Positions 18,428 through 59,085 of a stretch of 64,000 nucleotides of DNA are shown one piece after another. How positions within the stretch are numbered: the stretch's first letter is position 1; each line of letters starts with the position of its first letter. The stretch lies in contig JBQTGT010000007.1 in the NCBI GenBank assembly GCA_052390615.1, positions 73,614 to 137,613 on the forward strand. The letters are read 5' to 3'. This DNA comes from Actinomycetota bacterium. GTDB taxonomy: Bacteria; Actinomycetota; Acidimicrobiia; IMCC26256; PALSA-610. The position numbers were made by a program, and so were the translations under genes. The notes under the pieces were generated by a model. The model had not been told where the DNA came from. It did not search any database and saw only the letters and a program-made list of their open reading frames with translations.

Positions 18428-18450
18428 CGCCTTCGTAGACTGGAACACGC

Positions 18451-21576: not shown

Positions 21577-21578
21577 CG

Positions 21579-23833: not shown

Positions 23834-23972
23834 GTCCGCGAACTCGATCGGCAGGGCCCCTCCGCTTTGCAGGCAAGAGGCTTACATACGCGAGGCCCAC
23901 CTCCAAACCTCGAGCGCAATATCCGGCTCCGAGTGCGAACAAATCGTGCACTGTGTGTGGTACGAACGAGCG

Positions 23973-25112: not shown

Positions 25113-25122
25113 GGCGCCCTGC

Positions 25123-26214: not shown

Positions 26215-26244
26215 GCGGCAACCCCGATTTTGTATGGTGGCGCG

Positions 26245-27372: not shown

Positions 27373-28280
27373 AGGCGCTCGTCACCGGCGCGAGCGGATT
27401 CGTCGGACAACATCTGTGCGCGCACTTGCGCCAAACCGGCGACGATGTCGTCGCGTGCGACCGAGATGGACCACACTCGTTCGACATCACCGATCGTGAA
27501 GCGGTGCATGACGCGTTCACCCGCCACCGTCCCGATGTCGTATTCCACCTCGCCGCGTTCACGCACGTCGGCAAGTCGTGGCAGCGTCCGCGAGAAGTGC
27601 TGCGCGTCAACGTCGAAGGTACGGCCAACGTGCTGGACGCCGCGGGCGCGTCGGACGTCGCACGGATCTTGTACGTCGGCAGCGCCGAGGAGTACGGCAA
27701 GGTCGACGGGAACGACGGACCGCCGCTCGCGGAGACGGCGCCGCTACGTCCTTCGACCCCGTACGGCGCGAGCAAGGTTGCGGCGTCGTTCCTCGCGTTG
27801 CAGGCGTGGATCGGATCGGAGCTGGCGGTTGTGCGGGTGCGGCCGTTCGGCCACACGGGGCCGGGGCAGCCGGACCAGTTCGTGGTGCCCGGTTTGGCGC
27901 ACCGCATCGCGCGGGCCGAGGCCGACGGCGGCGAGCAGATCACGGTGGGGGCTCTCGATCCCGTTCGCGATATCGGCGACGTCCGCGACTTCGTCGTCGC
28001 GTACCGCCTGGCGGCGCTCCGGGGTGAGCCGGGCGAGGTCTACAACGTGTGCACCGGCACGGGGGTTTCGATCGCGGAGATCGCCGACAAGCTTCTCGCG
28101 CGCGCGCATCGCCCGCTGCGGATCGCGCAGGATCCTGTGCTCATGCGGCCCGTCGAGGTGCCCCGTCTCGTCGGCGATCCAACCAAGCTGCAGGCCGCGA
28201 CCGGATGGGCGCCGCGGTTCACGCTCGACGACACCCTTACCGCCGTGCTCGACGAGGCGCGGCAGAGTTACGGACCCTGA
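27369..28280 (+). CDS. NAD(P)-dependent epimerase/dehydratase-family reductase (GDP-4-keto-6-deoxy-D-mannose reductase/Rmd-like)
   Basis: ATGA overlap with the preceding GT4. VTGASGFVGQHL Rossmann motif and YGASKVA (YxxxK). Substrate assignment is tentative. Confidence 0.8.
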   Translation: MKALVTGASGFVGQHLCAHLRQTGDDVVACDRDGPHSFDITDREAVHDAFTRHRPDVVFHLAAFTHVGKSWQRPREVLRVNVEGTANVLDAAGASDVARILYVGSAEEYGKVDGNDGPPLAETAPLRPSTPYGASKVAASFLALQAWIGSELAVVRVRPFGHTGPGQPDQFVVPGLAHRIARAEADGGEQITVGALDPVRDIGDVRDFVVAYRLAALRGEPGEVYNVCTGTGVSIAEIADKLLARAHRPLRIAQDPVLMRPVEVPRLVGDPTKLQAATGWAPRFTLDDTLTAVLDEARQSYGP

Positions 28281-30388: not shown

Positions 30389-30453
30389 GCCGTCGTTCTA
30401 ATGGCGATGGAAGCGCACCTGCGTGAGTTGGCGGGGCGAAGACGGCGGAACGA

Positions 30454-30485
30454 GGGTCGGGGGCCGCAGCTGCGACCCCCGACCC
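30454..30485. terminator. 32-nt near-perfect GC palindrome in a 330-nt intergenic region
   Basis: GGGTCGGGGG-C-CGCAG|CTGCG-A-CCCCCGACCC. It lies about 235 nt downstream of the stop of the minus-strand gene 30721-31161 and 66 nt upstream of the DUF554 start. Confidence 0.35.
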
Positions 30486-30720
30486 GGTTCGACTGTCTTT
30501 CGCAATTCACTTTCGGAATTCGCCTGCGCCCCTGTTCATCAGTGGGACCAAGGCTGACGGCGCCGACGACGGTGCAGCGGTTGGATTCCGCTGAGGCGGT
30601 CCAGTCGGTGCTTGAAATGCTGGCCTCTAACGGCCGCGCACCTCCGGGGTCCCAGATTTATCATGCATGTGCTGGACCACCTCCCTTCTCCGGTAGGGAA
30701 AGTTGTACCAGATTCCGCGG

Positions 30721-31161
30721 CTACTCCGAACCCGTTTCTGGCGCCGGGGCGCCGACGGCACCGATCGCGCGCAAGTACGCCAGCTGCGTCTCGACGACGG
30801 CGTGCACCTGCTCGGGCAAGTACTCCTCTCCCGTCTCGCGGGCGCGATCGAGGATGTACGCGACGGTCTCGGAGCCACCCACGACCACGTCGCCGGGCGC
30901 GGTGGCGCTCGACCCGTTCCCCGTCACCCCCTTGCGGCGAAAGAATTCGAGCTGGAAGTCGAGGATCCGGCGCACATCGTCGGGCGTGAGCGTCGCCGCG
31001 ACAATGTCCGATACGTGCTCGACGACCCACTCGTACGCCTCGTCTAGGTCGAAGACCGGTAGGGGCGGTTCGACGGAGAGGCGGGCCGCTTCCCGGGTGA
31101 CGAACCACGCGGCGACGGCGCACGCCGCGCCGAACACGAGAAGCGCGCCTACCCACAGCAC
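30721..31161 (-). CDS. Hypothetical protein with a single N-terminal membrane anchor
   Basis: GTG start, hydrophobic N-terminus LWVGALLVFGAACAVAAWFV, then an acidic soluble domain. Coding-like third-position GC. Confidence 0.65.
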   Translation of the reverse strand: MLWVGALLVFGAACAVAAWFVTREAARLSVEPPLPVFDLDEAYEWVVEHVSDIVAATLTPDDVRRILDFQLEFFRRKGVTGNGSSATAPGDVVVGGSETVAYILDRARETGEEYLPEQVHAVVETQLAYLRAIGAVGAPAPETGSE

Positions 31162-31209
31162 ATGCGCACGCTACCTCCCTCATTCTCGACGCCACGGTAG
31201 GGTCGGCCG

Positions 31210-32973
31210 GTGGCGGAGCGACGCGTCAACACGATCGTCGCCTTCGTGTACGCAGTGCTCACGTACGCGCTGCTGTTTCCCACCTGGCCCAATCGACTGC
31301 GCACGCACATCCCCGGCGACGCGGGCGACGCGCTACTGAATCTTTGGATTCTCGACTGGGTCGGCCACCACATCGACGACGGGTGGGGCTCGTTGTGGGA
31401 CACGACGATCTTCTTTCCGTACGAGAACACGTTGGCGTACAGCGAGTCGCTCTTGCCGGTCGCGATCGTGCACCGCGCGGTCGCCGTCGTCCTCCGATCC
31501 GACGTCATGGCGTTCAACCTGATCCATCTCGCCGCGTGGTTCGCGTCGATGTGGTTCACATACCTGCTCGCTCGCCGGCTGACGGGAAGCGTTGCCGGCG
31601 CGTTCGTGGCGGGCCTCGTGTACACGCTGGCGACGCCGCGCCTCGCGCATTACTGGCACTTCCAACTCGCGTTCGGGTTCCTGGTCCCCGTCGTGATCTA
31701 TGCGATCTTGCGGTTCTTCGAGCAGCCGACACGGCGTCGCGCGCTGGCACTCGGATTCGCGGCGGGCGGGATCGTGTTGTCGACGAGCTACTACGGCCTG
31801 ATGACGGCCATCGCCGCCGCGATCATCGTCGGCGGGCTGTTGGTGTGGGGTCGTGGTGAGGGTTGGCGCGCGCCCGTCAAGGGCTTGGCGGTGGCCGGCA
31901 CCGTCGCCGCCCTACTCGTTGCGCCGGTCGCGTATCAATACGCGCAGCTGCAACGCGACGACCACTTCCAACGCGGCTACGAGGCGGGCGGGTCGGCGCA
32001 CGTCGGCGACTTCACCCGCGTGACGCACGACCACTATGTGCTCGGTGAGTACGGGCCGCTGGCGGCGCGTTCGCAGCCTGCGGACGGCTCGTTGGAACGA
32101 CGGCTGTTCCCCGGTGGCGTCGCGCTGGGACTCGGCGGAGTCGGCGTGATGATCGTCGCACGCGATCTGTGGCGCCGTCGGCGCCCGCGCGACCGCGACC
32201 TTGCACAACGACTCCTGGCGCTGATCGTCCTCGCGGGTGCGGTGTTGTTCGTGCTGTCGTTCGGCGACAAGACCACGATCGGCTCGCGCACGATCTGGAT
32301 GCCCTACGCCCTGCTGCGCGAGCTTCCGGGGTTCGCGGGCATCCGCGCGCCCGCCCGCTTCGTCGCGTTCTCGATCCTGGCGCTGGCGCTGCTCGCCGCG
32401 ATCGGGTTCGCGCGGGTGACCGGACGACGATCAGTGCGCGTCACGATCACTGCGCTCGTCCTCTGTTCGGGGTTGCTCGTCGCGGAGTCGGCGTTGCAAG
32501 TGCAGTTCCTGCGCGTTCCCGACCGGAACAGAGCGCGTGCGGTCAACGAAGAACTCGCGACGCGGCCCGACGGCACGGTCGTCGAGCTGCCGATCACGAG
32601 CCCGGCGGACGGCGCGACCTGGGCGTTCGTCGAGACGCCGCGCCAATGGTTGGCGCGGATCGACGGGAACGAACGCGTCGGCGGCTACAGCGGGTTCGAC
32701 CCGCCTGGTTTCGTCGAGCTCGTGGCCGCGCTCGACACCTTCCCGGCCGCCGACGGGCTCGCGACTGCCGACCGGCTCGACGTTCGCTACGTCGTCGTGC
32801 GCACCGCGTTGCCGGGTCCGCTCCCCGAGTTCTTGGCGCGTGTCGTCGATCGAGACGGCGTCGGTTGGTACTCCGACGCCTACGCCGCGGAGCTCGTCGG
32901 CGACATCCCACCCGAACGGGTCGCGAACGCCCGCCGCTACGGCGACGCCTGGCTGGTCGAGCTGCAGGACTGA
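31210..32973 (+). CDS. Large polytopic membrane protein with a C-terminal extracytoplasmic domain; GT-C-fold glycosyltransferase candidate
   Basis: 587 aa. N-terminal loop HIPGDAGDALLNLWILDW, followed by about 10-12 TM helices and a ~170-aa soluble tail. The GT-C call rests on architecture and context only. Confidence 0.6.
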   Translation: MAERRVNTIVAFVYAVLTYALLFPTWPNRLRTHIPGDAGDALLNLWILDWVGHHIDDGWGSLWDTTIFFPYENTLAYSESLLPVAIVHRAVAVVLRSDVMAFNLIHLAAWFASMWFTYLLARRLTGSVAGAFVAGLVYTLATPRLAHYWHFQLAFGFLVPVVIYAILRFFEQPTRRRALALGFAAGGIVLSTSYYGLMTAIAAAIIVGGLLVWGRGEGWRAPVKGLAVAGTVAALLVAPVAYQYAQLQRDDHFQRGYEAGGSAHVGDFTRVTHDHYVLGEYGPLAARSQPADGSLERRLFPGGVALGLGGVGVMIVARDLWRRRRPRDRDLAQRLLALIVLAGAVLFVLSFGDKTTIGSRTIWMPYALLRELPGFAGIRAPARFVAFSILALALLAAIGFARVTGRRSVRVTITALVLCSGLLVAESALQVQFLRVPDRNRARAVNEELATRPDGTVVELPITSPADGATWAFVETPRQWLARIDGNERVGGYSGFDPPGFVELVAALDTFPAADGLATADRLDVRYVVVRTALPGPLPEFLARVVDRDGVGWYSDAYAAELVGDIPPERVANARRYGDAWLVELQD

Positions 32974-33043
32974 TCCCGGCACGCACCCGCGAGCAGGCAC
33001 GGGACCCGGTTCGCGGCAGCCACCCGCCTACACTTCGGGGGCC

Positions 33044-33817
33044 ATGAAAGCTGTGCTGCTCGCAGGCGGCCTCGGTACCCGCTTGCGGGAGGAGACCGAG
33101 TTTCGCCCGAAACCGATGGTCGAGGTCGGGGGCAAACCGATCCTCTGGCACATCATGAAGGGCTTCGCGCACCATGGCATCCGTGAGTTCGTGCTCGCCA
33201 TCGGCTACCGGGGCGACGTCATCAAGGACTACTTCCTCAACTACGAGGCGCGCACCAACGACTTCACCGTCCACCTGGGCGACAGCAAGCAGCTCACCTA
33301 CCACGGCGCCCACGACGAGCACGACTGGACCGTGACCGTCGTCGAGACTGGCGCCACCACTCAGACCGGCGGTCGGGTGAAGCGGGTGGAGCCGTTCGTC
33401 GACGGCCGCTGCATCGTCACCTACGGCGACGGCCTCGCCGACGTCGACCTCGGGTTGCTGCTCGACTTCCACTCCGCGCACGGCAAGCTAGCGACGGTCA
33501 CGACCGTCCGGCCGTTGTCGCGTTTCGGCGTCATGGACCTCGCCCGCGACGGCACGGTCGAGCGGTTCCGGGAGAAGCCGCTCACCGAGGACTACGTGAA
33601 CGCCGGGTTCTTCGTGTTCGAGCCCGAGGTCTTCGAATACCTCGACGGCGACTGTGTGCTCGAACAAGCGCCGCTCGAAGCGCTCGCGCGCGACGGGCAG
33701 CTGGTCGCGTACCGCCACGAGGGTTTCTGGCAGCCGATGGACACATACCGCGAATCGGTGATGCTCAACGAGATGTGGGATCGGGGCGACGCGCCGTGGA
33801 AGGTGTGGAAGCCGTGA
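33044..33817 (+). CDS. rfbF: Glucose-1-phosphate cytidylyltransferase
   Basis: LAGGLGTRLREETEFRPKPMVEVGGKPILWHIM and the C-terminus FWQPMDTYRE...W are characteristic of RfbF/DdhA. Confidence 0.9.
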   Translation: MKAVLLAGGLGTRLREETEFRPKPMVEVGGKPILWHIMKGFAHHGIREFVLAIGYRGDVIKDYFLNYEARTNDFTVHLGDSKQLTYHGAHDEHDWTVTVVETGATTQTGGRVKRVEPFVDGRCIVTYGDGLADVDLGLLLDFHSAHGKLATVTTVRPLSRFGVMDLARDGTVERFREKPLTEDYVNAGFFVFEPEVFEYLDGDCVLEQAPLEALARDGQLVAYRHEGFWQPMDTYRESVMLNEMWDRGDAPWKVWKP

Positions 33818-34809
33818 CGACACCCGATCGCGAGTTTTGGTCGCAACGGCGCGTGCTCGTCACGGGCGCGACCGGCATGGTCGGCTCGTGGCTGACGCGC
33901 TGGCTCGTCGAGTCGGGCGCGTACGTGGCCGCGCTCGTATGCGACTGGGATCCGCAGAGCGAGCTGATTCGCAGCAGCAGCATCACCCGTGTTGCGGTCG
34001 TCAGCGGGCGGCTCGAAGACTTCGACGCCGTCGAGCGCGCCGTTAACGACAACGAGGTCGACAGCGTGTTCCACCTAGGCGCGCAGGCGATCGTCGGCGT
34101 CGCGCACCGCTCACCCCGCCAGACGTTCGAGAGCAACATCCAGGGCACATGGAACGTGCTCGACGCGTGCCGGCTGCATTCGAGCCTCGTACAACGCGTC
34201 GTCGTCGCATCGAGCGACAAGGCCTACGGCACGCAGACGGCGTTGCCATACACCGAAGACATGGCGCTGCAAGGCGACCACCCCTACGAGGTGTCGAAGA
34301 GCTGCACTGATCTCATCACGACGACGTACGCGCAGACCTACGGCCTACCGGCTACGATCGCGCGCTGCGGCAACATCTACGGTGGCGGCGATCTCAATTG
34401 GAACCGCATCGTGCCGGGCACGTTCCGGTCGCTGATTCGGGGCGAGACGCCGATCATTCGCAGTGACGGAACGTTCGTGCGCGACTACTTGCACGTCGAT
34501 GACATCGTGCACGCGTACTTGGTGCTCGGTGAGCAATCTCACGAGCCCGAGCTCGCCGGGCAGGGTTTCAACTTCAGCGACCAGTCGCCGTTGAGCGTGA
34601 TGGAGATCTACGAGGCCGTGTGTGTCGCCGCCGGCAAGTCGGGCACGGAACCGCGCGTGCTCGACGTCGCCGCGGGTGAGATCAAGGACCAGTACCTTGA
34701 CGCGACCAAAGCCGCGAAGGTGCTGGGATGGCAGGCGTCGACCTCGCTGACCGCCGGGCTGGCCAACACGTACCGGTGGTACGCGGATCTGCTCGAGCGC
34801 GATCGATGA
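33814..34809 (+). CDS. rfbG: CDP-glucose 4,6-dehydratase
   Basis: GTGA overlap with rfb[21 protein letters not shown] and YEVSKSC (YxxxK). Confidence 0.9.
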
Positions 34810-36137
34810 GCGACCAGGACCGGCTGCGCAAGGAGATCCTCGACCTCGTCGAGCAGTACTACGAGGCTGCCTTTCCTCCCAAGCCGTTTCTCGGTGGCAT
34901 CTCGGCCGTGCCGGTGTCGGGCAAGGTCTTCGACGCCGACGAGTTGAAGCTGCTCGTCGACTCGTCGCTCGATTTCTGGCTCACGACCGGGCGTTACGCC
35001 GAACTGTTCGAGAAGCGCTTCGCCAAGGTGATGGGCGTCCGCCACGCGATGCTGTGCAACTCGGGGTCGTCGGCCAACCTGCTCGCCGTCAGCGCGCTGA
35101 CGTCGCCCCGCTTGGGCAAGCGCCAGCTCAAAGAAGGCGACGAAGTGCTGACGGTGGCGGCTGGCTTCCCGACCACGATCGCGCCGATTCTCCAGAACCG
35201 GCTCGTGCCGGTGTTCGTCGACGCACAGCTCGGCACGTACGACGCCGACATGGATCGTCTCGCGGACGCGATCGGCCCAAAGACGCGTGCAATCGTCATG
35301 GCGCACACGCTTGGCAACCCGTTCGACCTTGGCGCGGTGATGGCGCTCGCCAAGGAGCACAACTTGTGGGTGGTCGAAGACACCTGCGACGCGGTCGGCG
35401 CCCGCTACGACGGCAAGCCCGTCGGCTCGTTCGGCGACCTCGCCACGACGAGCTTCTATCCTGCACATCACATCACGATGGGCGAAGGCGGCTGCGTGCT
35501 GACGCGCAAAGGTGCGCTCAAGAAGATCGTCGAGTCGTTTCGCGATTGGGGCCGCGACTGCTGGTGTGCCCCCGGCAACGACAACACGTGCGGGCGGCGC
35601 TTCGACTGGCAGCTCGGCGAACTGCCGTACGGCTACGACCATAAGTACACGTACTCCCACGTCGGTTACAACCTGAAGGCCACCGACATGCAGGCCGCGG
35701 TCGGTGTGGCGCAGCTCGACAAGCTCGACGGCTTCATCGACGCCCGCCGCACGAACTGGCAACACCTGCATGACGGCCTCACCGATCTCGAGGAGCACTT
35801 GATCCTCCCCGAGGCCACGCCGAACTCCGAGCCGAGCTGGTTCGGGTTCGCGATCACCGTGCGGCCGGACGCGCCGTTTACTCGATTCGAGCTGGTGCAG
35901 CACCTCGAGAGTCGAGGGATTGCGACGCGCCAGCTGTTCGGCGGCAACATGATGCGTCAGCCCGCGTACCTGGACCTGCCGCACCGCGTCGTCGGCCCGT
36001 TGACCAATGCCGACATCATCACCGAGGGCACGTTCTGGATCGGGGTGTTTCCCGGCCTGTCCAAGAAGATGATCGACTTCACCCTCGAAACGTTCCACGA
36101 GTTCGTGACGCCCACCGCACCAGGGAGCAAACGATGA
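34806..36137 (+). CDS. rfbH: CDP-6-deoxy-L-threo-D-glycero-4-hexulose 3-dehydrase (E1; RfbH/DdhC/AscC type, PMP and [2Fe-2S])
   Basis: ATGA overlap with rfbG. DegT-fold protein in which the PLP lysine position reads His ([14 protein letters not shown]), unlike SFYPGKNLGAYGDGG in the DegT paralog at 48970. Cys cluster [11 protein letters not shown] (C-x-C-x7-C). Confidence 0.9.
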
Positions 36138-37228
36138 GCATCCGCCGCGACGTCTTCGAAGACCTCTTCGTCTTGGAGCTGGCGAACAACCACCTGGGAA
36201 GTGTCGACCGCGGCCGTCGGATCATCTCCGACTTCGCCAAGGTCGTCCGCTACAACAACGTGCGTGCGGCAATCAAACTGCAGTTCCGCGACGTCGACTC
36301 GTTCGTGCACCCTTCACACCGCGACCGCACAGACATTCGCTACATCAAGAAGACGCTCGACACCAAGATGACATTCGACGACTTCGCCGAACTGACGCAG
36401 CTCATCGTGAAGAGTGGCTGCATTCCGATGGCGACGCCCTTCGATGAACAGTCGGTCGATATGTGCGTCGAGCTGAAGATGCCGCTCCTCAAGCTCGCGA
36501 GCTCCGATCTCAACGACTGGGTGCTCATCGAGAAGATGGCGACAACTCGCCTACCAGTGATCGCGTCGACCGGCGGGTCATCGTTGAAGGACATCGACGA
36601 CCTCGTGACGTTCTTCGAGAACCGCAGCATCCCGCTCGCACTGAACCACTGCGTCTCGCTGTATCCGAGCGAGGATTCCGAACTGGAGCTCAACCAGATC
36701 GACTTCCTCAAGCACCGCTACCCCACCGTCACGATCGGCTTCTCGACGCACGAGTACCACGACTGGAGCGCGTCGATCATGATGGCGTACGCGAAGGGTG
36801 CGCGCACGTTCGAGCGTCACGTCGACATCGAAGCCGACGATGTCACCGTTTCGCCGTATTGCAGCCAGCCCCATCAGATCGACGAATGGGTCCGCGCGTT
36901 CAAGAAGGCGAAGGAGATGTGCGGCACCCCCGGCACGTACAAGCGCATCCCGTCGCAAAAGGAAGTCGACTACCTCGACGCGCTCGTGCGCGGCGTGTAC
37001 GCCAAGCGCGACCTATCGGTCGGGCACCGCATCTCCGACGGCGACTTCTTCCTGGCGATCCCGCTACTCAAGGGCCAGCTGTCGTGCCGCGAGCTGATCG
37101 CAGGCGAGGAGCTGGCGCGCGAAGTGACGGCGGGCGCGCCGGTGACGATCGACGACCTCGACAACCCGTACTCGCGTACCGACTCGCTGCGCGAAACGAT
37201 CGCGCAGCGAGGCCTCGAACCCGCGTGA
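36134..37228 (+). CDS. NeuB-family (sialic-acid-synthase-like) PEP-dependent aldolase with a C-terminal SAF domain
   Basis: ATGA overlap with rfbH. N-terminus [13 protein letters not shown]...[20 protein letters not shown] and ASTGGSS resemble my recollection of the NeuB TIM barrel. C-terminal SAF-like segment ([18 protein letters not shown]). Third-position A/T is visibly higher than in the neighbours. Confidence 0.8.
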
Positions 37229-39021
37229 GCCAACCTTCCTCGCCGCAGAAATACGCGGACCTGGTGATGGCCTGGCTCGCAGAACTGGGCTACACGCACT
37301 GCTTCTTCGTCGCCGGCGGAAACATCATGCATCTGCTCGATGGCGCCCGAAAGACGATGACCTGCGTGCCGGTGGTCCACGAAGTCGCGGGCGGCATCGC
37401 GGCCGAGTACTTCAACGAGTCCGGTGGCGAGGGCCGCGCGTTCCTCTTGGTCACGGCCGGGCCGGGCATCACGAACGCGACGACCGCCATGGCGGGCGCG
37501 TGGCTCGAGAGCCGTGAGCTGCTCGTCGTCGGCGGTCAGGTGAAGTCGACCGACCTCGCCACCGGTGGCGTGCGCCAGCGGGGCATCCAGGAAATCGACG
37601 GTGTCGCGATCGCGGCGCCGCTGTGCGTGGAGGCCGTACGCATCGAGGAACCGTGGCACCGCAAGCAGTTCGCCGACGCGGTGTTGGCCGGGCGCCGCGG
37701 CCGACCCGGTCCGGTGTTCATCGAGATGTGCCTCGACGCGCAGGGCGCGCCTGTCGACGCGACCGCGCAGGGGACGGCGGACGCCAGCGACGCGCATATC
37801 GGCCCCCCGGCGAAGGCTGTCACCGCCGCGGCCGTCGCGGCCGACGAGATCTACGCGCGCATGCGCGACGCGCGACGCCCGCTGTGGCTGATCGGCGGCG
37901 GCGTCACGCGCGCGACCGCGGCCGCGGCCCTCGACCGGCTCGTCGCGACCGGCGTCCCGGTGATGACCACCTGGAACGGAACCGACCGCGTCCCCCACGG
38001 CACGCCGACATACCTCGGCCGCCCGAATACGTGGGGCCAGCGATCCGCGAACGTGCTGGTCGCGCAATCCGACCTCGTCGTCGCGTTCGGGACTCGGCTC
38101 GGCTTGCAGCAAACGGGTTTCAACTGGCAGGAGTTCGGCCGAGGCGGCACCGTGGTGCAGGTCGACATCGACGCCGCCGAGTTGGAGAAGGGCCACCCGC
38201 GCGTCGACCTTGCGTTCGAGGCCGACGCCAACGCGCTGCTCGCAGATCTCGTCGGGCGTGACTATCCCGACTACTCGGAATGGCTCGCGTTCGGCCGTGA
38301 AGTGCGCGAACTGCTGCCCGTCAACGAACCGTGCAACCTCACTGGTGACGGGTTCGTGTGTCCGTACGAGTTCTATCTCGACCTGTCGGCGCTCGCGACG
38401 TCCGCCGACGTATTGATCCCGTGTTCGAGCGGCGCCGCCAACTCGGTGGCGATGCAGACGATCGTGCAGAAGCGCGGCCAGGTGATCGTGACCGACAAGG
38501 GCCTCGCCAGCATGGGCTACGGCCTCGCGGGCGCGATCGGCGCCGCGCTCGCCCACCCGAATCAGCGCACGATCCTCGTCGAGGGTGACGGGGGGTTCGC
38601 GCAGAACCTCCAGGAGTTGGCGACGGTCGCCGTGAACGACCTCGACCTGAAGATTTTCATCCATGCCAACGAGGGCTACGGGTCGATCCGCACCACGCAG
38701 AAGAACTACTTCGGTGGCGCCTACCTCGGCTGCGACACGCAGACTGGCCTCGGCTTCCCCGACTGGCTGCAACTGTTCGCTGCGTACGGCGTACCCGCGA
38801 TGAATCTCGCGCCCGGTTGGAACACGGACCCGGCCTTCCGCACCGAGTTCGACGCACGCGGGCCGCGTGGCTTCATCGTACCGATCGACACCGAGCAGAC
38901 CTACTGGCCCAAGATCACGAGCCGGGTCACCGAGACCGGCAGCATGGAATCGCAGCCACTGCACCTCATGTCGCCCGATCTCCCCGAAGACCTCGCGGCC
39001 CGCGTGTTCAAATACCTCTGA
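37225..39021 (+). CDS. Thiamine-diphosphate-dependent enzyme, acetolactate-synthase large-subunit fold (YerE-like candidate)
   Basis: GTGA overlap with the NeuB-like gene. N-terminal Pyr domain (VHEVAGGIAAEY, TAGPGITNA) and ThDP motif GDGGFAQNLQEL...IHANEGYG. The track ORF start at 36463 is an out-of-frame-derived extension. Confidence 0.85.
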   Translation: MSQPSSPQKYADLVMAWLAELGYTHCFFVAGGNIMHLLDGARKTMTCVPVVHEVAGGIAAEYFNESGGEGRAFLLVTAGPGITNATTAMAGAWLESRELLVVGGQVKSTDLATGGVRQRGIQEIDGVAIAAPLCVEAVRIEEPWHRKQFADAVLAGRRGRPGPVFIEMCLDAQGAPVDATAQGTADASDAHIGPPAKAVTAAAVAADEIYARMRDARRPLWLIGGGVTRATAAAALDRLVATGVPVMTTWNGTDRVPHGTPTYLGRPNTWGQRSANVLVAQSDLVVAFGTRLGLQQTGFNWQEFGRGGTVVQVDIDAAELEKGHPRVDLAFEADANALLADLVGRDYPDYSEWLAFGREVRELLPVNEPCNLTGDGFVCPYEFYLDLSALATSADVLIPCSSGAANSVAMQTIVQKRGQVIVTDKGLASMGYGLAGAIGAALAHPNQRTILVEGDGGFAQNLQELATVAVNDLDLKIFIHANEGYGSIRTTQKNYFGGAYLGCDTQTGLGFPDWLQLFAAYGVPAMNLAPGWNTDPAFRTEFDARGPRGFIVPIDTEQTYWPKITSRVTETGSMESQPLHLMSPDLPEDLAARVFKYL

Positions 39022-39974
39022 TGTCCGACCGTGCGCTCGTCTCCGTGGCGATTCCTGCCTACAACGAGTCGGACAATCTCGACGAGCTGGCTTCGCGGCT
39101 CCAAGCGGTGTTCGCAACCCTGGCCGAGAAGTACGACTTCGAGGTGGTGATCTGCGAGAACGGTTCGCAGGACGACACGTACGACAAGCTGTTGAAGATC
39201 CGCGAGAAGGATCCGCGGTTCAAGATCGTGCAGCTCGTGCGGAACTTCCACATGGAGGGTGGCATGGGCGCCGCGCTCGCGCACGTATCTGGTGACGCGT
39301 GCCTGATCATGAGCGCCGACCTCCAAGATCCACCGGAGATGATCCCGACGTTGATCGAGCAGTGGGAACAGGGCTACGAGAACGTGTACACGGTCATCAC
39401 GAAACGCCACGGTGAGGGCCGGTTCCGACGCGGGATGGCCCAACTCTTCTACTGGGTGATCAACAAGGTGAGCGACACGCCCGTGCCCCGGAACGCGAGC
39501 GACTTCCGGCTGGTCAGCAAGCCCGCGTACGAAGCGTTCAACGCGCTGCCGGAACGAAACCGGATGGTGCGCGCGCTTTGGGGCTGGCTCGGGTTCCGAT
39601 CGATCGGTGTCGAATACGAACGGCTGCCGCGCAGCGGCGGAAACTCGAAGTTCAAGCCGTTCGCGACCGCCGGGTTCGCGGTCCGCGGCATCCTCTCGAG
39701 TTCGTACACGCCGCTGAAGGCGATCCCGTTGCTCGGCGCCGGGCTCTCGATGCTGTCGTTCGTGGCACTGGGGGGCATGGTCGTGCGCGCGTTCGTGTGG
39801 GGCGTCCCGTTCCCCGGCTTCGGTACGATCGTGTCGCTCATGCTCTTGCTGTTCGGATTCTTGTTCTTGCTGCTCGGGGTCGTGAGCGAGTACATCGGCA
39901 TGATCTTCGAAGAGTCCCGCCAGCGCCCCGGCTATCTCATCCGTCAGCGCCACGGCATCGATTCCGACACGTGA
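39021..39974 (+). CDS. GT2 polyprenyl-phosphate glycosyltransferase (ArnC/GtrB/Ppm1-like) with two C-terminal TM helices
   Basis: The start shares one nucleotide with the upstream stop (TGATG). SVAIPAYNESDNL, SADLQDPPE, and a C-terminal hydrophobic pair ending VSEYIGMIFEE. Confidence 0.85.
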   Translation: MSDRALVSVAIPAYNESDNLDELASRLQAVFATLAEKYDFEVVICENGSQDDTYDKLLKIREKDPRFKIVQLVRNFHMEGGMGAALAHVSGDACLIMSADLQDPPEMIPTLIEQWEQGYENVYTVITKRHGEGRFRRGMAQLFYWVINKVSDTPVPRNASDFRLVSKPAYEAFNALPERNRMVRALWGWLGFRSIGVEYERLPRSGGNSKFKPFATAGFAVRGILSSSYTPLKAIPLLGAGLSMLSFVALGGMVVRAFVWGVPFPGFGTIVSLMLLLFGFLFLLLGVVSEYIGMIFEESRQRPGYLIRQRHGIDSDT

Positions 39975-39996
39975 TTCCGCATCTCGAAGGAGCAGC

Positions 39997-40935
39997 GTGA
40001 GACCGGTGAGCGCGCGAATCAGGGCGACGCTGTTGCGTCACCCGCGCCTGCTGGCGTTGGTCGTGACGGCCGTCGGGTTGCGGCACGGCGTGCGCGTGCG
40101 CTGGCTCGCAGATCACTGTTGTTTCGCAGTTCTCAAAGGCGACACCGACGTACTGGTCGCTCGTCATCACGGCGCGTATCTTCCCGACCTGGTCAACAAC
40201 TTCGTGATGATGACCGAGCGCATCCTCCCCGACGTGCGCGACGGCCGCAGGGTGTACGACTTCACGACGCCAGTGCCGCATCGGTTCGTCGATGGTTCGT
40301 CGTGGTCGTTCCCCGGCTTGCCCGAGGTCGACGCCACCAGTGACCACTACATCGAAACGCTGGGCGTCAAGCCGGGCGACGTCGTGTGGGACATCGGCGC
40401 GTACTCCGGTCTGTCGACCAAGGCATTCGCCCAGGCAGTCGGGACCGCGGGCACGGTCGTCGCCGTCGAGGCCGACCCGACCTGTTTCGGTTGCGTCGCT
40501 TCGAATCTCCCGCGCGATTCCTTCCCCACGGTCCACCTCGTCCAAGCCGCACTGTGGGACGACGACGGCACCGTCGAGTTCCAAGCCGAAGCCAATCAGG
40601 GCTCGACGATCGCCACCGCGGGCACGCGCGCGACGAACGTGATCGACGTGCGCGCGCTGACACCCGAAACGCTGTTCAAACAGGTAGGCACCGATCGAGT
40701 CGACGCGGTGAAGCTCGATATCGAGGGCGCGGAGTACCGCGTGGTCCCGGCGTTTGCGGCGCTGTTCGCGACAGTTCGGCCGAAGTTCCTCATCGAGGTC
40801 CACAAGAACGGCGACGAGAAGGTGGACGCCGGCGCGCTGATCCAGTTCTTCGCGCAACACGACTACGAGGCAACCGCGATCTCCCAGCCGGAGAAGAGCC
40901 CGTTCCCGCTCGTGTTCGCGCATCCGCGCGCCTGA
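39997..40935 (+). CDS. FkbM-family SAM-dependent methyltransferase
   Basis: VVWDIGAYSGLST, VVAVEADP and VDAVKLDIEGAEY are FkbM hallmarks. Confidence 0.8.
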   Translation: MRPVSARIRATLLRHPRLLALVVTAVGLRHGVRVRWLADHCCFAVLKGDTDVLVARHHGAYLPDLVNNFVMMTERILPDVRDGRRVYDFTTPVPHRFVDGSSWSFPGLPEVDATSDHYIETLGVKPGDVVWDIGAYSGLSTKAFAQAVGTAGTVVAVEADPTCFGCVASNLPRDSFPTVHLVQAALWDDDGTVEFQAEANQGSTIATAGTRATNVIDVRALTPETLFKQVGTDRVDAVKLDIEGAEYRVVPAFAALFATVRPKFLIEVHKNGDEKVDAGALIQFFAQHDYEATAISQPEKSPFPLVFAHPRA

Positions 40936-40966
40936 CTCGCCGGCGCGCCCGCGCGCCGCGAAACGA

Positions 40967-42202
40967 CTACGCGCGGGGGATCTTCACGAGGCGATTGCTG
41001 CCACCAAGGGCGGCGCACGCCTTCAGGATCGACGCCTCGTGGTGCACGGACGTGACGACGATCGGTTCCGATGACCCGACGATCTTCTCCGGTGCAACAA
41101 TCGGAACGCCGCGCAGATGGAGTCCGTGCTTCTGCGGCGAGCCGTCGACGATGGCGACGACCGGCACGCGCGCGAGAACGGTCGAGGTGAGCAGCTTCAT
41201 CGCGAGCTGACCCGCCCCCCAGACGATGACCCCGTCGGCACGGCCGATCTCGGCGGTCAGATGATCGTCGATCGTGTGCATCAACTGATTCGACGCATCG
41301 ATGTAGCGCGCGATCCCGGCGGCGAGCGCCTCGTCGAATCCGAGCTCGTCGGTGGTCGGCCCGCCGTCGACGCGTCGCCACAAGCCGTAGATCGCCGGAT
41401 ACGGGTCGACCGCCGAGCACCGGACGATCTTGTGATCGCTCGTGACCTTCTCGAATCCCTGTGCGGCCATGAATCGTTCGAGCAGTCCGAGCGAAAAATG
41501 GTTGATGTGTTCGGTGTTGAAGTCGTGGAACGGCGCAACGAGGTGATCGGCATAGTGCTCGGCGTCCGGCACCTCGAGGTACACCACGCCCCCAGGCTTC
41601 GTGAGCGCGCGCATGGACGACACGGCCGCGCGCACGTCGCCGAGGTGTTCGAGGACATGCGAGAGCGCGACCACATCGAACTGGCCGACATCCGGCGGCG
41701 GTGTGATGAACGATCCCGTGACCGCTTCGACACCGTGCACACGGCGCGCGGTGTTCGTGGCGACCGGCGACGGATCGAGCCCGACAAGATTGTCCCAGCC
41801 GCGCGCCTTGAGAAACCCGAGCAACGATCCGGTTGCACAGCCCGCGTCGAGCAGCCGAGCGTCGGCAGGGAGTTGCTCGTCGAGCCACGCGGCAACGCCG
41901 TCGAGGCGTTCCAAGTCCCACGGCGCCTCGGGCGGCGGCGGCGGCTCGTCGGCGGCGGCCTCGCCGCCGTACAGCGACGTATCCGCATACTTCGAATGTT
42001 CTTCATAGGACTTGTCGAGGTCCTCTTGCGCGGTCGGGATATCGCTGAACACGAAGCCGCAGCGCCCGCACGACACGATGTCGACCTGGTCTTCGACACC
42101 CAGCTCATCCACCGACGCGAACGATTGCGCGTGCAAGACGCGTCCTGCCGTTCCCAGGCAGAGCGGGCAAGGACGCACAAGCGTCTTCGAGGGCATGCGC
42201 AC
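40967..42202 (-). CDS. Three-domain SAM-dependent methyltransferase with an N-terminal Zn-ribbon (NDP-hexose C-methyltransferase/TylC3-like architecture)
   Basis: CPLC...CGRCG Zn ribbon, SAM motif I LLDAGCATGSLL, and a C-terminal Rossmann-like domain (VIVWGAGQLAMKLL). At 411 aa the length is typical of sugar C-methyltransferases. Confidence 0.75.
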   Translation of the reverse strand: MRMPSKTLVRPCPLCLGTAGRVLHAQSFASVDELGVEDQVDIVSCGRCGFVFSDIPTAQEDLDKSYEEHSKYADTSLYGGEAAADEPPPPPEAPWDLERLDGVAAWLDEQLPADARLLDAGCATGSLLGFLKARGWDNLVGLDPSPVATNTARRVHGVEAVTGSFITPPPDVGQFDVVALSHVLEHLGDVRAAVSSMRALTKPGGVVYLEVPDAEHYADHLVAPFHDFNTEHINHFSLGLLERFMAAQGFEKVTSDHKIVRCSAVDPYPAIYGLWRRVDGGPTTDELGFDEALAAGIARYIDASNQLMHTIDDHLTAEIGRADGVIVWGAGQLAMKLLTSTVLARVPVVAIVDGSPQKHGLHLRGVPIVAPEKIVGSSEPIVVTSVHHEASILKACAALGGSNRLVKIPRA

Positions 42203-42211
42203 GTTCCTCAG

Positions 42212-43240
42212 CTAGCGAGCGATGTGGTGCGCGAGCGTACGACGGATGCCCTCGTCGAGACCGACTCGGTTGGAAAGACCCAGCTCTTTCTGGGCTCGGG
42301 CGATGCTCGGCACGTACCGTTCGGGAATCCGACGCGGGTCGGCGGTCCCGCGCTGCTCGACCACGACGCCGGGCGCCGCCGCCGCGATCCGATCAGCCAG
42401 TTCCCGGATGGACACCGCGTCGTCGGCACCGACGTTGTACGCCCGGCCGGCTTCACCGCGCACCAACAGTGCGAGCAGCCAGACGACCAGGTCGGCCGGA
42501 TACTGGTAGGAGCGGCGCGGCGTCCCATCACCACCGATCACGATCGGACCGCTCGCGAGCGCGTCGCGCACGAAGTTCCCGGCCGCGAAGTGCGCATCGA
42601 GTGGAAGATGCGGCCCGAGAAATGCGAAGAGACGGCCGATGACGACGTCGAGGGCACCCGCGGCCGTCGCGACGGCGGCCAACAACTCCGCCATGCGCTT
42701 GGCCTCGTGATACGCGTTTTCGGGCGCCAACGGATCGGGCGCGCCGCCGTACTCTTCGGAGACGTTGTCGAGATCCAGGGGCTGGCGGCCGTACACCGCG
42801 CCCGAGCTGGTGAACAGCACTCGGATGCGCCCCCATTCTTCCGCCCGTTCGAGAAAGTGGCGCATGCCCTCGACCACGGTGTCGATCATCGTGTGCGGCG
42901 AGTCGCGGTTGAGCGCAGCGCTGGCGGCCGTCGCGGCGTGGATTGCCGCGTCAGCACGAGGAAGCGCGGGAAACGGTACCAAGACGTCGCCGCGATGGAA
43001 CGTGATCTTCTCGTGCGCGGCGACGATCGGCAGCCTCGTCGCGGCTGCTTTCGGATCCCGCGTCAGCACATCGACGTGCACACCCAAGTTGAGACTCGTG
43101 TTCGCCCACGCGACCGTGTGCAACAGCCACGTGCCGACGAAGCCGGTTCCGCCGGTGACGAACAGCCGCGTCCCGCGGAGCTGTTCGAGGTCGTCGCGGG
43201 CGGCCTCGCCGATCTCGATGAGATCCTCGGGACTCGTCAC
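42212..43240 (-). CDS. NAD(P)-dependent epimerase/dehydratase-family (extended SDR) sugar-nucleotide reductase/epimerase
   Basis: GTGA overlap with the upstream membrane-protein gene. VTGGTGFVGTWL and YHEAKRM (YxxxK). The track ORF extension to 43555 is spurious. Confidence 0.8.
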   Translation of the reverse strand: MTSPEDLIEIGEAARDDLEQLRGTRLFVTGGTGFVGTWLLHTVAWANTSLNLGVHVDVLTRDPKAAATRLPIVAAHEKITFHRGDVLVPFPALPRADAAIHAATAASAALNRDSPHTMIDTVVEGMRHFLERAEEWGRIRVLFTSSGAVYGRQPLDLDNVSEEYGGAPDPLAPENAYHEAKRMAELLAAVATAAGALDVVIGRLFAFLGPHLPLDAHFAAGNFVRDALASGPIVIGGDGTPRRSYQYPADLVVWLLALLVRGEAGRAYNVGADDAVSIRELADRIAAAAPGVVVEQRGTADPRRIPERYVPSIARAQKELGLSNRVGLDEGIRRTLAHHIAR

Positions 43241-50662: not shown

Positions 50663-50682
50663 TCTCCGGTAGCGTCTCAGCA

Positions 50683-57621: not shown

Positions 57622-57709
57622 GTCTCCCTCGAAAATGCCGGGAATCCGGCGAAATCTACTGGACAGGATGCACCGCTACCGGACGACGCCCCTCAGGGAG
57701 GGCGACGGC

Positions 57710-58990: not shown

Positions 58991-59016
58991 GGCGGTTACT
59001 GCTCCTGCGCGAGATT

Positions 59017-59050: not shown

Positions 59051-59085
59051 GCTGTTCCGGGGTCGTGCGCGCCGGTGACGGCCCG

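Follow-up and report, generated by a model that had tools for sequence, protein, structure and literature searches.

In erwiniose-type clusters, an aldolase acts first and delivers a 4-hydroxy-2-oxo acid, which a ThDP enzyme then grafts onto CDP-4-keto-3,6-dideoxyglucose (Steitz 2022, PMC9306805). The ThDP enzyme ErwE refuses pyruvate and takes the aldolase product as its donor; YerE uses pyruvate (PMC9306805). Pyruvate is also a substrate in vitro for JanthE, a characterised YerE-like and ketone-accepting carboligase, and for MyGE. The genomic order around JanthE is of the erwiniose type (RfbF-RfbG-RfbH-ThDP-SDR-DmpF-DmpG-SDR-GT2). In M. marinum, mutants lacking the aldolase-family protein MMAR_2331, the ThDP enzyme MMAR_2332 or the glycosyltransferase MMAR_2333 each lose caryophyllose (PMC5706390), and for the DPMS-like glycosyltransferases of this LOS cluster, including MMAR_2333, a carrier-loading logic has been proposed.

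The actinobacterial operon described here most likely makes a long-branched 3,6-dideoxy sugar in CDP-activated form, according to the same "unifying scheme" as erwiniose, caryophyllose and gastriose, with a sialic-acid-synthase-like enzyme in the place of the usual aldolase. What differs is the family of the donor-forming enzyme: the three known clusters rely on pyruvate-dependent aldolases of the DmpG or HpcH type, whereas the present enzyme is of the PEP-dependent NeuB type. As each of these clusters has an aldolase, the view of a first-pass annotation that such an enzyme is foreign to dideoxyhexose pathways is not supported.

Architecture of the locus

Within the window (the whole stretch of 64,000 nucleotides analysed, GC 68%), six ORFs at 33044-39974 are all coding-like (GC3 0.86-0.91). 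Their coordinates and five overlapping junctions proved exactly as first annotated, with GTGA shared at 33814-33817, ATGA at 34806-34809 and 36134-36137, GTGA at 37225-37228 and TGATG at 39019-39023; an independent gene call places the start of the second gene at GTG 33805, which would lengthen the overlap from 4 to 13 nt. Start/stop overlaps are frequent in high-GC operons, and it is because synteny is conserved elsewhere, not because codons overlap, that we regard these genes as a functional unit. The unit probably extends beyond these six genes, with a DUF6311 gene lying 70 nt upstream of RfbF and an FkbM gene 22 nt downstream of the GT2 gene; two more genes of the conserved module, MT2 and SDR2, are found on the convergent strand. 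Profile and PDB sequence matches bear out the six families proposed earlier. The features are:

31210-32973, plus strand: DUF6311 membrane protein, 587 aa, about 8 predicted TM segments (PF19830 in annotation; hydropathy)
33044-33817, plus strand: RfbF, glucose-1-phosphate cytidylyltransferase (TIGR02623)
33814-34809, plus strand: RfbG-like CDP-glucose 4,6-dehydratase, extended SDR (TIGR02622 below cut-off; 1wvg, 1rkx); start at 33805 equally possible
34806-36137, plus strand: RfbH/E1, PMP- and [2Fe-2S]-dependent CDP-6-deoxy-4-hexulose 3-dehydrase (NF011936; motifs)
36134-37228, plus strand: NeuBL, putative NeuB-like PEP-dependent synthase (PF03102 and SAF)
37225-39021, plus strand: YerE/JanthE-like ThDP carboligase, FAD probable (three ThDP domains; JanthE 8rph)
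39021-39974, plus strand: GtrB/ArnC-like polyprenyl-phosphate GT2 with C-terminal TM segments (GtrB 5ekp)
39997-40935, plus strand: FkbM-family methyltransferase (TIGR01444), probably the last plus-strand gene
40967-42136, minus strand: MT2, class I SAM methyltransferase, 389 aa (Methyltransf_23)
42212-43240, minus strand: SDR2, extended SDR, 342 aa (Epimerase family)
43237-45549, minus strand: polytopic membrane protein, 770 aa, about 9 TM segments and a C-terminal soluble part
45630-47138, minus strand: polytopic membrane protein, 502 aa, about 11 TM segments (gene call; hydropathy)

Predicted synthesis of the acceptor

By homology, RfbF, RfbG and RfbH would together form CDP-4-keto-3,6-dideoxy-D-glucose, the route originally assigned to the first three genes and one with which the family matches agree. 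RfbF covers the whole TIGR02623 profile with 339 bits (cut-off 300), and its homologues in related loci are 48-78% identical. The RfbG-like SDR, which displays SSDK and YEVSK motifs, reaches 193 bits against the CDP-glucose 4,6-dehydratase model TIGR02622, below its cut-off of 278, and its top two solved relatives are CDP-glucose 4,6-dehydratases (1wvg and 1rkx). Regarding RfbH, the two signatures by which it had been recognised, a His at the aminotransferase Lys position (in a 14-residue segment) and a C-x-C-x7-C motif (11 residues), are both present, and NF011936 agrees with 721 bits (cut-off 423). The E3 partner of RfbH had been noted as missing from the window, and neither a motif scan nor Pfam scans of most larger ORFs outside the operon found an E3/AscD-like ORF there; across the 84 related loci checked, there is likewise no E3 reductase gene. 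Judging from sequence, the electron donor of RfbH is not locally encoded.

A probable YerE-like carboligase and a putative NeuB-like synthase

The ThDP protein contains all three ThDP domains, the catalytic Glu and the GDG motif, and it lies under every acetolactate synthase (ALS) cut-off (top ALS score 238 against a cut-off of 738). Its best PDB match and closest solved relative is JanthE (8rph; 260 bits in an end-to-end match that takes in the C-terminal tail; 32.7% global identity), with 178 bits for PpYerE (5ahk), 175 for E. coli ALS I and about 175 for acetolactate synthases. The phylogeny comprised one true ALS as outgroup, the sequences of YerE, ErwE, MMAR_2332 and MyGE lying outside the comparison. 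The designation YerE-like thus stands in so far as the enzyme is nearer to a YerE-like carboligase than to ALS, but the pyruvate-derived C2 branch attached to it is not supported. We propose that this enzyme joins a decarboxylated donor to CDP-4-keto-3,6-dideoxyglucose at C4.

The NeuB-like protein (NeuBL) combines a NeuB domain (PF03102) with a SAF domain and belongs to a subfamily in which, to our knowledge, no enzyme has been characterised. It scores 113 bits against the NeuB model (cut-off 400) and 110 bits against the PseI model (cut-off 340), and its best PDB match is 3g8r (214 bits), an entry to which no function is assigned, with just 72 bits for NmNeuB. It retains the residues aligned to E25, K53, Q55, K129, S132, S154, S213, H215, E234, H236 and Y186 of NmNeuB (residue roles in part from PMC8208679), and the positions aligned to NmNeuB active-site residues are invariant in the NeuBL alignment except for R314, replaced by I or V, and D247, replaced by S. 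The residues aligned to those binding ManNAc are absent, and R52, H59, R65, R69, K72 and K73 are invariant, family-specific basic residues. Far under all cut-offs and devoid of Arg314, NeuBL is not a canonical nonulosonate synthase, a point on which the first-pass annotation had staked its interpretation.

Source databases label the two proteins "acetolactate synthase large subunit" and "N-acetylneuraminate synthase", as would be expected if true acetolactate and nonulosonic acid synthases and an ordinary dideoxyhexose pathway were chance neighbours. This explanation is close to refuted: NeuBL and the ThDP protein are far under every equivalog cut-off, R314 is missing, synteny is kept across phyla, and Pfam scans of the surrounding ORFs found no IlvN/IlvH small subunit, NeuA, NeuC or PseB/C.

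Since the JanthE cluster carries a DmpF/DmpG aldolase, NeuBL would hold the aldolase position and role here, and its best reading is that of a provider of the keto-acid donor rather than of an enzyme for a later C3 extension. NeuBL is proposed to make a 3-deoxy-2-ulosonic (that is, 4-hydroxy-2-oxo) acid from PEP and an aldehyde or aldose, possibly phosphorylated. The ThDP enzyme would then decarboxylate this acid and transfer the acyl-anion equivalent to the ketone at C4 of the CDP-sugar, which, by analogy with homologues for which in vitro carboligase data exist, may give a tertiary alcohol bearing a long hydroxylated branch.

The order put forward originally, in which the ThDP enzyme installs an acetyl branch (C2) from pyruvate that NeuBL extends by three carbons from PEP, finds some backing in the use of pyruvate by YerE and its acceptance by JanthE and MyGE in vitro, and the position of the NeuB gene before the ThDP gene does not contradict it, gene order being silent on reaction order. 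We nevertheless hold it to be very unlikely, since known NeuB enzymes require an aldehyde and an acetyl branch presents them with a methyl ketone, since ErwE refuses pyruvate within an aldolase-first pathway, and since a HAD phosphatase adjoins NeuBL in about one third of the related loci, which suggests small-molecule sugar-phosphate chemistry rather than a CDP-sugar substrate.

It is also conceivable, if improbable, that NeuBL uses PEP to attack the CDP-keto-sugar itself at its C4 ketone, generating a 4-C-(2-oxo-2-carboxyethyl) branch whose tethered alpha-keto acid the ThDP enzyme would decarboxylate or ligate. A similar structure exists in nature in shewanellose, whose C4 bears a C3 branch derived from pyruvate; moreover, the NeuBL and ThDP genes are translationally coupled and nearly always together, and the invariant basic residues, in a protein deprived of ManNAc-binding ones, could bind an anionic nucleotide-sugar. 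Against this, we know of no NeuB-family enzyme using a ketone, the likeness of the ThDP enzyme to carboligases that accept ketones suits a sugar serving as acceptor and not as donor, a phosphorylated small aldose better explains the HAD partner, and NeuBL is 65-71% identical among loci whose sugar-nucleotide genes differ.

Conservation across related loci

Hundreds of uncultured bacteria, spread over many phyla, carry the gene cassette. A ThDP homologue lies at most 5.2 kb from NeuBL in 70 of 80 related loci, which span at least seven phyla (Actinomycetota, Acidobacteriota, Pseudomonadota, Myxococcota, Bacillota, Verrucomicrobiota and Patescibacteria); just three loci (L021, L044 and L053) lack it despite ample flanks, and in the other seven the sequence extends for less than 2 kb on one side or both. 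RfbF, RfbG, RfbH, SDR2 and GT2 co-occur with NeuBL in most complete loci, a methyltransferase is a usual and a HAD phosphatase a frequent companion of the NeuBL-ThDP pair, and the typical order is RfbF-RfbG-RfbH-SDR2-MT2-ThDP-NeuBL-GT2. Sampling in reverse, from ThDP homologues, recovered NeuB-ThDP-GT2 with nearby RfbFGH in four of five loci. The exception-like cases are L089, which encodes a close ThDP homologue (63% identity) without NeuBL or RfbH, and several Rhodocyclales loci, where NeuBL and ThDP stand beside sugar genes other than RfbFGH; the acceptor is therefore not always a 3,6-dideoxy keto-sugar.

That NeuBL-ThDP-GT2 occurs in several loci without RfbFGH within 10 kb would also suit a self-contained NeuBL-ThDP pair, the ThDP enzyme being a simple decarboxylase that releases a small product such as a free 2-deoxy-aldose, and RfbFGH separately making a plain 3,6-dideoxyhexose with SDR2 as a 4-ketoreductase of the paratose/abequose synthase type. 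Such a division is unlikely given the six overlapping genes forming one unit, the presence of RfbH in 28 of 46 fully flanked loci, the origin of the nearest characterised ThDP relatives, which are carboligases from RfbFGH clusters, and the lack in the operon of a kinase or nucleotidyltransferase for a second sugar.

Proposed tailoring and transfer to a lipid carrier

In the favoured pathway, in which the NeuBL product serves as donor, the convergently encoded SDR and the methyltransferases may next reduce or epimerise and methylate the branched sugar. SDR2, whose best PDB match is a UDP-glucuronate decarboxylase (90 bits), has homologues in most complete loci (40-56% identity) and might act on the side chain as a ketoreductase or epimerase. 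With the second SDR of the JanthE cluster it shares 31% identity, and it is not the counterpart of the reductase at the ErwF position there, so that side-chain reduction is hypothetical. About 20 related loci encode MT2 homologues of 39-56% identity (50% in L085-L087). The FkbM methyltransferase (92 bits against TIGR01444, cut-off 38) has homologues in few related loci only, and we read it as a lineage-specific decoration.

The GT2 follows directly after the NeuBL/ThDP pair, an arrangement conserved in related loci, and would move the sugar from CDP to polyprenyl phosphate, a role akin to that proposed for MMAR_2333. Among solved structures it comes closest to GtrB, a polyprenyl-phosphate glucosyltransferase (5ekp; 224 bits over residues 7-313), ahead of ArnC (114 bits); this full-length match, the sub-cut-off matches to the NCBIfam PgfS and ArnC models and the hydrophobic C-terminal segments seen by hydropathy uphold the ArnC/GtrB type given to it at the outset. 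We know of no documented use of a CDP-sugar by a GtrB-like enzyme.

Hydropathy indicates that the membrane proteins near the operon, which the first-pass annotation took for GT-C enzymes, are polytopic, and these may use the polyprenyl-linked sugar outside the membrane. The DUF6311 protein, possibly encoded by the first gene of the transcription unit, is a candidate extracytoplasmic glycosyltransferase; it had no match in our Pfam scan or among PDB sequences, and its single-sequence AF2 model is too uncertain to interpret (pLDDT 42). The stop of the gene for the 770-aa protein and the start of SDR2 share 4 nt; the protein is a candidate extracytoplasmic transferase with no Pfam or PDB match, and in L089 a homologue with 32% identity over 561 aa is encoded after the GT2, adjoining GT87 and GtrA genes. 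Upstream in the same minus-strand unit lies the gene of the 502-aa protein, for which Pfam and profile scans gave no family match.

Concluding remarks

The initial interpretation thus survives for RfbFGH, the YerE-like ThDP enzyme, the non-canonical NeuB, the GT2 and the absence of E3, and is revised for the reaction order and the supposed foreignness of the aldolase. Taken as a whole, the locus probably directs the synthesis and lipid-carrier loading of a 3,6-dideoxyhexose with a 4-C-acyl or hydroxyalkyl branch. This type of pathway is already known; what would be new is the recruitment of the NeuB-type enzyme family at the donor-forming step.

Organization of the operon and its sugar nucleotide genes

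The six coding sequences at 33044-39974 and their closest neighbours are the following:

31210-32973, +, DUF6311 membrane protein
33044-33817, +, RfbF
33814-34809, +, RfbG-like SDR
34806-36137, +, RfbH (E1 3-dehydrase)
36134-37228, +, NeuBL, a NeuB-like candidate PEP-dependent synthase
37225-39021, +, ThDP enzyme, a YerE/JanthE-like candidate carboligase
39021-39974, +, GT2, GtrB/ArnC-like
39997-40935, +, FkbM methyltransferase
40967-42136, -, methyltransferase MT2
42212-43240, -, short-chain dehydrogenase SDR2
43237-45549, -, 770-aa protein
45630-47138, -, 502-aa protein

Third-position GC amounts to 0.86-0.91 in all six ORFs, in a window of about 68% GC. The first-pass annotation had quoted five junction strings between these genes and assigned their products to six families; all five strings were found exactly as quoted in the sequence, and each family call was upheld by Pfam and NCBIfam. 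By themselves, overlaps between start and stop codons are ordinary in high-GC operons, and the second gene possesses an alternative start at 33805. The transcription unit probably also takes in the upstream DUF6311 membrane protein and the downstream FkbM methyltransferase; a promoter and terminator scan of 30400-43800 gave no signal above shuffled expectation.

Regarding the sugar nucleotide genes, RfbF scores above its NCBIfam equivalog cut-off and RfbH reaches 721 bits against an equivalog cut-off of 423, with both the His in place of the PLP Lys and the C-x-C-x7-C cysteine motif of the [2Fe-2S] cluster visible in its sequence. The second-gene SDR falls below the CDP-glucose 4,6-dehydratase cut-off; nonetheless, its two best PDB relatives are CDP-glucose 4,6-dehydratases. 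The operon holds the gene set that leads to CDP-4-keto-3,6-dideoxy-D-glucose in the scheme of Steitz et al. 2022, namely a cytidylyltransferase, a 4,6-dehydratase and an E1 3-dehydrase.

A putative YerE-like carboligase in an erwiniose-type setting

The ThDP enzyme is built of three ThDP domains. It was considered as a genuine acetolactate synthase (IlvB/IlvG/IlvI), a function rejected as its best acetolactate synthase score is 238 bits against an NCBIfam cut-off of 738, no small-subunit gene is present and its neighbours are NeuBL and GT2. Among solved structures, 5ahk (178 bits), which we take to be PpYerE (a review mentions that structures of PpYerE and JanthE exist), and E. coli ALS I (175 bits) come after 8rph, which aligns with 260 bits over residues 7-591 including the C-terminal tail. 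This best relative is JanthE, a YerE-like enzyme that joins keto acids to ketones (PMC12188165). The window protein shares 32.7% global identity with it, keeps the catalytic Glu and has the canonical GDG where JanthE has CDG. By its likeness to JanthE, the protein is a candidate YerE-like ThDP carboligase. In a neighbour-joining tree, it falls in an Actinomycetota clade sister to JanthE and the other NeuBL-linked enzymes, the outgroup of one true acetolactate synthase making this tree no real test of YerE versus acetolactate synthase ancestry.

A unifying scheme for acyl-branched sugars has been proposed and partly demonstrated (Steitz et al. 2022, PMC9306805). According to this scheme, an aldolase joins pyruvate and an aldehyde to give a 4-hydroxy-2-oxo acid, which a YerE-like ThDP enzyme decarboxylates and adds to CDP-4-keto-3,6-dideoxyglucose before a reductase finishes the side chain (PMC9306805). 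ErwE of the erwiniose cluster does not accept pyruvate (PMC9306805), implying that the aldolase must act first. In Mycobacterium marinum, caryophyllose is no longer added when MMAR_2331 (aldolase/citrate-lyase family), MMAR_2332 (ThDP) or MMAR_2333 (GT) is lost (PMC9306805, PMC5706390).

JanthE was recovered from the protein collection and its genomic context was read in Janthinobacterium sp. HH01 (L084; AMWD01000002.1 4131597-4153429). The order of the cluster is RfbF, RfbG, RfbH, JanthE, SDR, DmpF-like dehydrogenase, DmpG/BphI-like aldolase, SDR and GT2. This cluster is of the erwiniose type, and the window presents the same backbone with a NeuB-like gene in place of the aldolase pair. JanthE was published with its physiological substrates still to be identified; its erwiniose-type gene context suggests what they are, 4-hydroxy-2-oxovalerate and CDP-4-keto-3,6-dideoxyglucose being predicted as the natural ones.

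Like the window, erwiniose-type clusters (ErwE/ErwF/ErwJ/ErwI of Pectobacterium atrosepticum, PMC9306805, and the JanthE cluster) combine RfbF-G-H, a YerE-like ThDP enzyme, extended SDRs, a keto-acid-forming enzyme and a GT2. They differ from it by their donor-forming enzymes, which are a DmpG/BphI-type pyruvate aldolase and a DmpF-type acetaldehyde dehydrogenase instead of a NeuB-family, presumably PEP-dependent synthase, by ThDP enzymes only about 31-33% identical to that of the window, and by a GT2 fused to a hexapeptide transferase domain whereas the GT2 of the window is GtrB-like. SDR2, a conserved extended SDR whose best PDB match is UDP-glucuronate decarboxylase, resembles the JanthE cluster's second SDR (31% identity) rather than the ErwF-position SDR, which is without counterpart in the window. 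The actinobacterial caryophyllose system shows, by its published description, the same triad of aldolase, ThDP carboligase and GT with a product used on the envelope; however, MMAR_2331 is reported as a pyruvate-using aldolase/citrate-lyase-family enzyme and, unlike M. marinum with its LOS, the organism of the window is an uncultured Actinomycetota MAG without known glycolipid. As for the yersiniose pathway of Yersinia pseudotuberculosis (AscA-D, YerE and YerF), it shares with the window the keto-sugar acceptor and the ThDP-type branching at C4, but YerE takes pyruvate directly, without aldolase, to install a C2 branch.

A further point concerns E3, the DdhD/AscD-type reductase partner of RfbH. 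Its absence from the window had been pointed out previously, and motif and Pfam scans covering most of the larger ORFs likewise disclosed no E3/AscD-type gene there. In Y. pseudotuberculosis, the corresponding AscD is encoded within the asc cluster, contrary to the window. The erwiniose cluster of P. atrosepticum has no E3 nearby either. No E3-like ORF was found in the 84 related loci checked or in the JanthE cluster, and its absence is thus typical of the cluster type rather than peculiar to the window. The reductant of RfbH must therefore be generic or encoded elsewhere.

A NeuB-family enzyme in the place of the aldolase

Pfam scans of the window ORFs revealed no pyruvate aldolase of the DmpG/BphI or HpcH/citrate-lyase type; the slot that the scheme of Steitz et al. 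gives to the aldolase is held by NeuBL. This protein consists of a Pfam NeuB domain (129 bits) and a SAF domain, and hence shares the TIM-barrel and SAF architecture of NeuB, PseI and LegI. It was accordingly considered as a synthase of nonulosonic, sialic-acid-type acids, and this candidate was rejected. Its scores lie well below the equivalog cut-offs (113 vs 400 bits for NeuB, 110 vs 340 for PseI), and the best PDB relative is 3g8r with 214 bits, N. meningitidis NeuB (NmNeuB) reaching only 72; 3g8r itself carries no assigned function and is annotated just as "probable SpsE". Contrary to NeuB, PseI and LegI, NeuBL has no CMP-sugar synthetase or hexosamine-modifying genes nearby, and no NeuA, NeuC or PseB/C-type gene appeared in Pfam scans of the window or in typical related operons.

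A further argument comes from an alignment of 30 family members with 3g8r and NmNeuB. The roles given to the NmNeuB active-site residues other than R314 are in part presumed. The positions aligned to E25, K53, Q55, K129, S132, S154, S213, H215, E234, H236 and Y186 of NmNeuB are invariant in all 30 members, while that of R314 is Ile in 21 and Val in nine of them, and Phe in 3g8r. In nonulosonate synthases, R314 is reported to be the only catalytic residue of the SAF domain that is conserved (PMC8208679). Other replacements relative to NmNeuB are D247 by Ser, F288 by Ala or Gly and E134 by Asp. The family is unusually conserved, with 179 of 364 positions near-invariant, and it possesses invariant basic residues of its own (R52, H59, R65, R69, K72 and K73), in common with 3g8r.

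With the positions aligned to the catalytic residues of NmNeuB conserved, the expected chemistry is a PEP-dependent condensation with an aldehyde to a 3-deoxy-2-ulosonic acid. Such a product would fall squarely among the 4-hydroxy-2-oxo acids, the donors of ErwE-type enzymes. NeuBL is presumably a functional analogue of the aldolase, from another family and with another C3 donor (PEP), and its product is proposed to be consumed as the ThDP donor, whereas those of NeuB, PseI and LegI are activated as CMP-sugars. The first-pass annotation had proposed another order, with a C2 unit from pyruvate added first and a C3 unit from PEP afterwards, which on chemical and comparative grounds is less likely than the synthase acting first and the ThDP enzyme second. 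It was right about the pathway class, about the YerE-like enzyme, with JanthE as best relative and scores below all acetolactate synthase cut-offs, and about GT2.

We found no paper joining a NeuB-family enzyme to a YerE-like enzyme; the association may have been recognized earlier in the in silico survey by Krug et al. in 2024, which reportedly covers more than 200 YerE-like clusters.

Conservation of the cassette in other genomes

A pattern-limited scan with one genome per species brought up NeuBL relatives in 353 species-level genomes. The best 80 (L001-L080) are all from MAGs and belong to Actinomycetota, Acidobacteriota, Rhodocyclaceae and other Pseudomonadota, Myxococcota, Desulfosporosinus, Spartobacteria and Patescibacteria; a tblastn search of the plasmid collection with NeuBL returned no match. 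In 70 of these 80 loci, NeuBL has a ThDP homologue no more than 5.2 kb away. Only L021, L044 and L053 are devoid of one despite ample flanks, the other seven having less than 2 kb on at least one side. For the remaining genes, co-occurrence was counted in the 46 loci where NeuBL is flanked by 9 kb or more in each direction.

Number of these 46 loci with a homologue of each window gene
GT2: 44
RfbG-like: 31
RfbF: 29
SDR2: 29
RfbH: 28
MT2: 11

The typical acidobacterial operon, RfbF-RfbG-RfbH-SDR2-MT2-ThDP-NeuBL-GT2, has the same gene set as the window, which differs by SDR2 and MT2 being on the convergent strand. Sampling was also begun from the ThDP side, against ascertainment bias, with five homologues of 62-67% identity. 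Four of them show the order NeuB, ThDP and GT2, with a 4-nt overlap after NeuB and with RfbFGH, SDR2 and MT2 nearby. In the fifth (L089; GCA_038233375.1, JBBSMC010000003.1 5493-16845), where the ThDP enzyme is 63% identical to that of the window, RfbG, RfbH and NeuB are replaced by a DHQ-synthase-like (sugar-phosphate cyclase) gene, which lies upstream of the ThDP gene together with a nucleotidyltransferase and a short-chain dehydrogenase. This locus may serve to make a branched carbocyclic sugar.

Between phyla, NeuBL is 65-71% identical to that of the window, its ThDP partner 29-38% and GT2 25-36% (L001-L080). Moreover, gene order is inverted, NeuBL preceding the ThDP gene in Actinomycetota and following it elsewhere, and the two genes seem to have come together, or to have been exchanged, on more than one occasion. 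In some Rhodocyclales loci, the pair is accompanied by a TylC3-like C-methyltransferase and another kind of 4,6-dehydratase, not by RfbFGH, indicating that the cassette is not bound to one acceptor sugar.

Two further observations were made during this survey. The loci of a gammaproteobacterial MAG (L038) and a Patescibacteria MAG (L080) are nearly collinear, each with two paralogous JanthE-like ThDP genes near a NeuB-like gene. In addition, CAMCZG010000007.1 (L006) is labelled "MAG: Bifidobacterium breve", yet its GC content is 44% and a window-like operon is there in full (RfbF-G-H-NeuBL-ThDP-GT2-SDR), and its taxonomic label looks wrong.

A phosphoglycolate-phosphatase-like HAD-IA hydrolase is encoded between or beside the ThDP and NeuBL genes in at least 26 loci, about one-third of the related loci, from several phyla (L012 9321-9998; L008 about 13826-14500; L086 13866-14531; L088 11956-12498; at least 22 more). 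This pairing recalls the synthase/phosphatase pairs NANS/NANP and KdsA/KdsC and hints at a phosphorylated substrate, intermediate or product. No HAD phosphatase adjoins the operon of the window; the only HAD gene found, at 21495-22151, was rejected as its partner, being of another subfamily and sitting with UbiA and DprE1-like genes.

The predicted polyprenyl-phosphate glycosyltransferase and the surrounding glycan locus

GT2 matches GtrB (5ekp) with 224 bits over residues 7-313, and ArnC with 114 bits. With a GT-A domain, hydrophobic C-terminal segments at residues 232-297 and a full-length match to a solved member, it has the architecture of GtrB/ArnC/DPMS-type enzymes, as the first-pass annotation had called it. 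DPMS-like GT2 enzymes of M. marinum LOS biosynthesis have been proposed to load sugars on polyprenyl phosphate for extracellular transfer (PMC12507525). The window resembles GtrB/GtrA/GtrC, ArnC/ArnT and PgfS systems by this GT2 with its C-terminal membrane anchor and by large polytopic neighbours (587, 770, 502 and 632 aa); while GtrB-type systems use UDP- or GDP-sugars, its donor would be a CDP-sugar. Our Pfam, NCBIfam and PDB scans gave no match for any of the four polytopic proteins, PDB sequence searches with the DUF6311 and 770-aa proteins matched nothing, and a single-sequence AF2 model of the DUF6311 protein, made as a test of the GT-C fold, had a pLDDT of 42, too low to read. No flippase of the GtrA type turned up in the window; in L089, a homologue of the 770-aa protein follows GT2 beside GT87 and GtrA genes. 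The start of SDR2 overlaps the stop of the 770-aa polytopic protein by 4 nt on the convergent strand (43237-43240), which couples the translation of a cytoplasmic enzyme of sugar modification to that of a putative extracytoplasmic transferase.

The operon is surrounded by a large glycan locus (23748-28280 and 50018-60282) with seven or so GT4, a hexapeptide acyltransferase, more methyltransferases, an extra SDR and a Wzt-type ABC ATPase. The coordinates of this ATPase and of a second group of genes in the window are:

57710-59167, Wzt-type ABC ATPase with Wzt_C carbohydrate-binding domain
17069-18427, 12-TM protein without family match
18439-19416, UbiA prenyltransferase
19409-20821, DprE1-like FAD oxidase
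21495-22151, HAD-IB hydrolase

The glycan locus with its Wzt-type ATPase points to an ABC-transporter-dependent polymer. The four genes at 17069-22151 resemble the decaprenyl-phosphoryl-arabinose route, and the organism may also make a polyprenyl-phosphate pentofuranose donor. Elsewhere in the window, one open frame (12354-14090, -) comprises a LipB-type octanoyltransferase domain at residues 62-248 as well as a radical-SAM domain of lipoyl synthase at 296-503, being either a lipB-lipA fusion or an assembly frameshift.

Concluding remarks

The locus fits the known type of acyl-branched sugar cluster in its RfbF-G-H genes and its YerE-like ThDP enzyme, has in SDR2 a possible side-chain reductase, and departs from that type in the family of its donor-forming enzyme. 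Its most likely function, which we consider reasonably probable, is to make a CDP-4-C-branched 3,6-dideoxyhexose, whose branch would derive from a NeuB-type, PEP-derived ulosonic acid and which, once methylated and/or reduced, would be handed on to polyprenyl phosphate. More speculatively, and with distinctly lower confidence, the NeuBL family could be a new class of PEP-dependent 3-deoxy-2-ulosonate synthase that condenses PEP with a sugar or a sugar phosphate, its product serving as ThDP acyl donor and not as glycan building block. A C5-C8 polyol chain would then be grafted on a keto-sugar to give undescribed C11-C14 branched monosaccharides, made by hundreds of uncultured species spread over at least seven phyla and delivered to the envelope by a CDP-sugar-using GtrB-type enzyme. 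Condensation with a sugar or sugar phosphate would account for the HAD phosphatase so often encoded alongside, and for the basic residues specific to the family.

Among envelope components, long-branched sugars (caryophyllose, erwiniose and gastriose, for instance) are rare, and those of M. marinum affect macrophage uptake. The logic of their biosynthesis was proposed only in 2022, from few clusters with pyruvate aldolases (PMC9306805). The present locus suggests that the donor can also be formed in a third manner, by a PEP-dependent enzyme of NeuB type, in a cassette that, with 353 species-level genomes in a pattern-limited scan, is far more widespread than the characterised examples. [quoted passage not shown]
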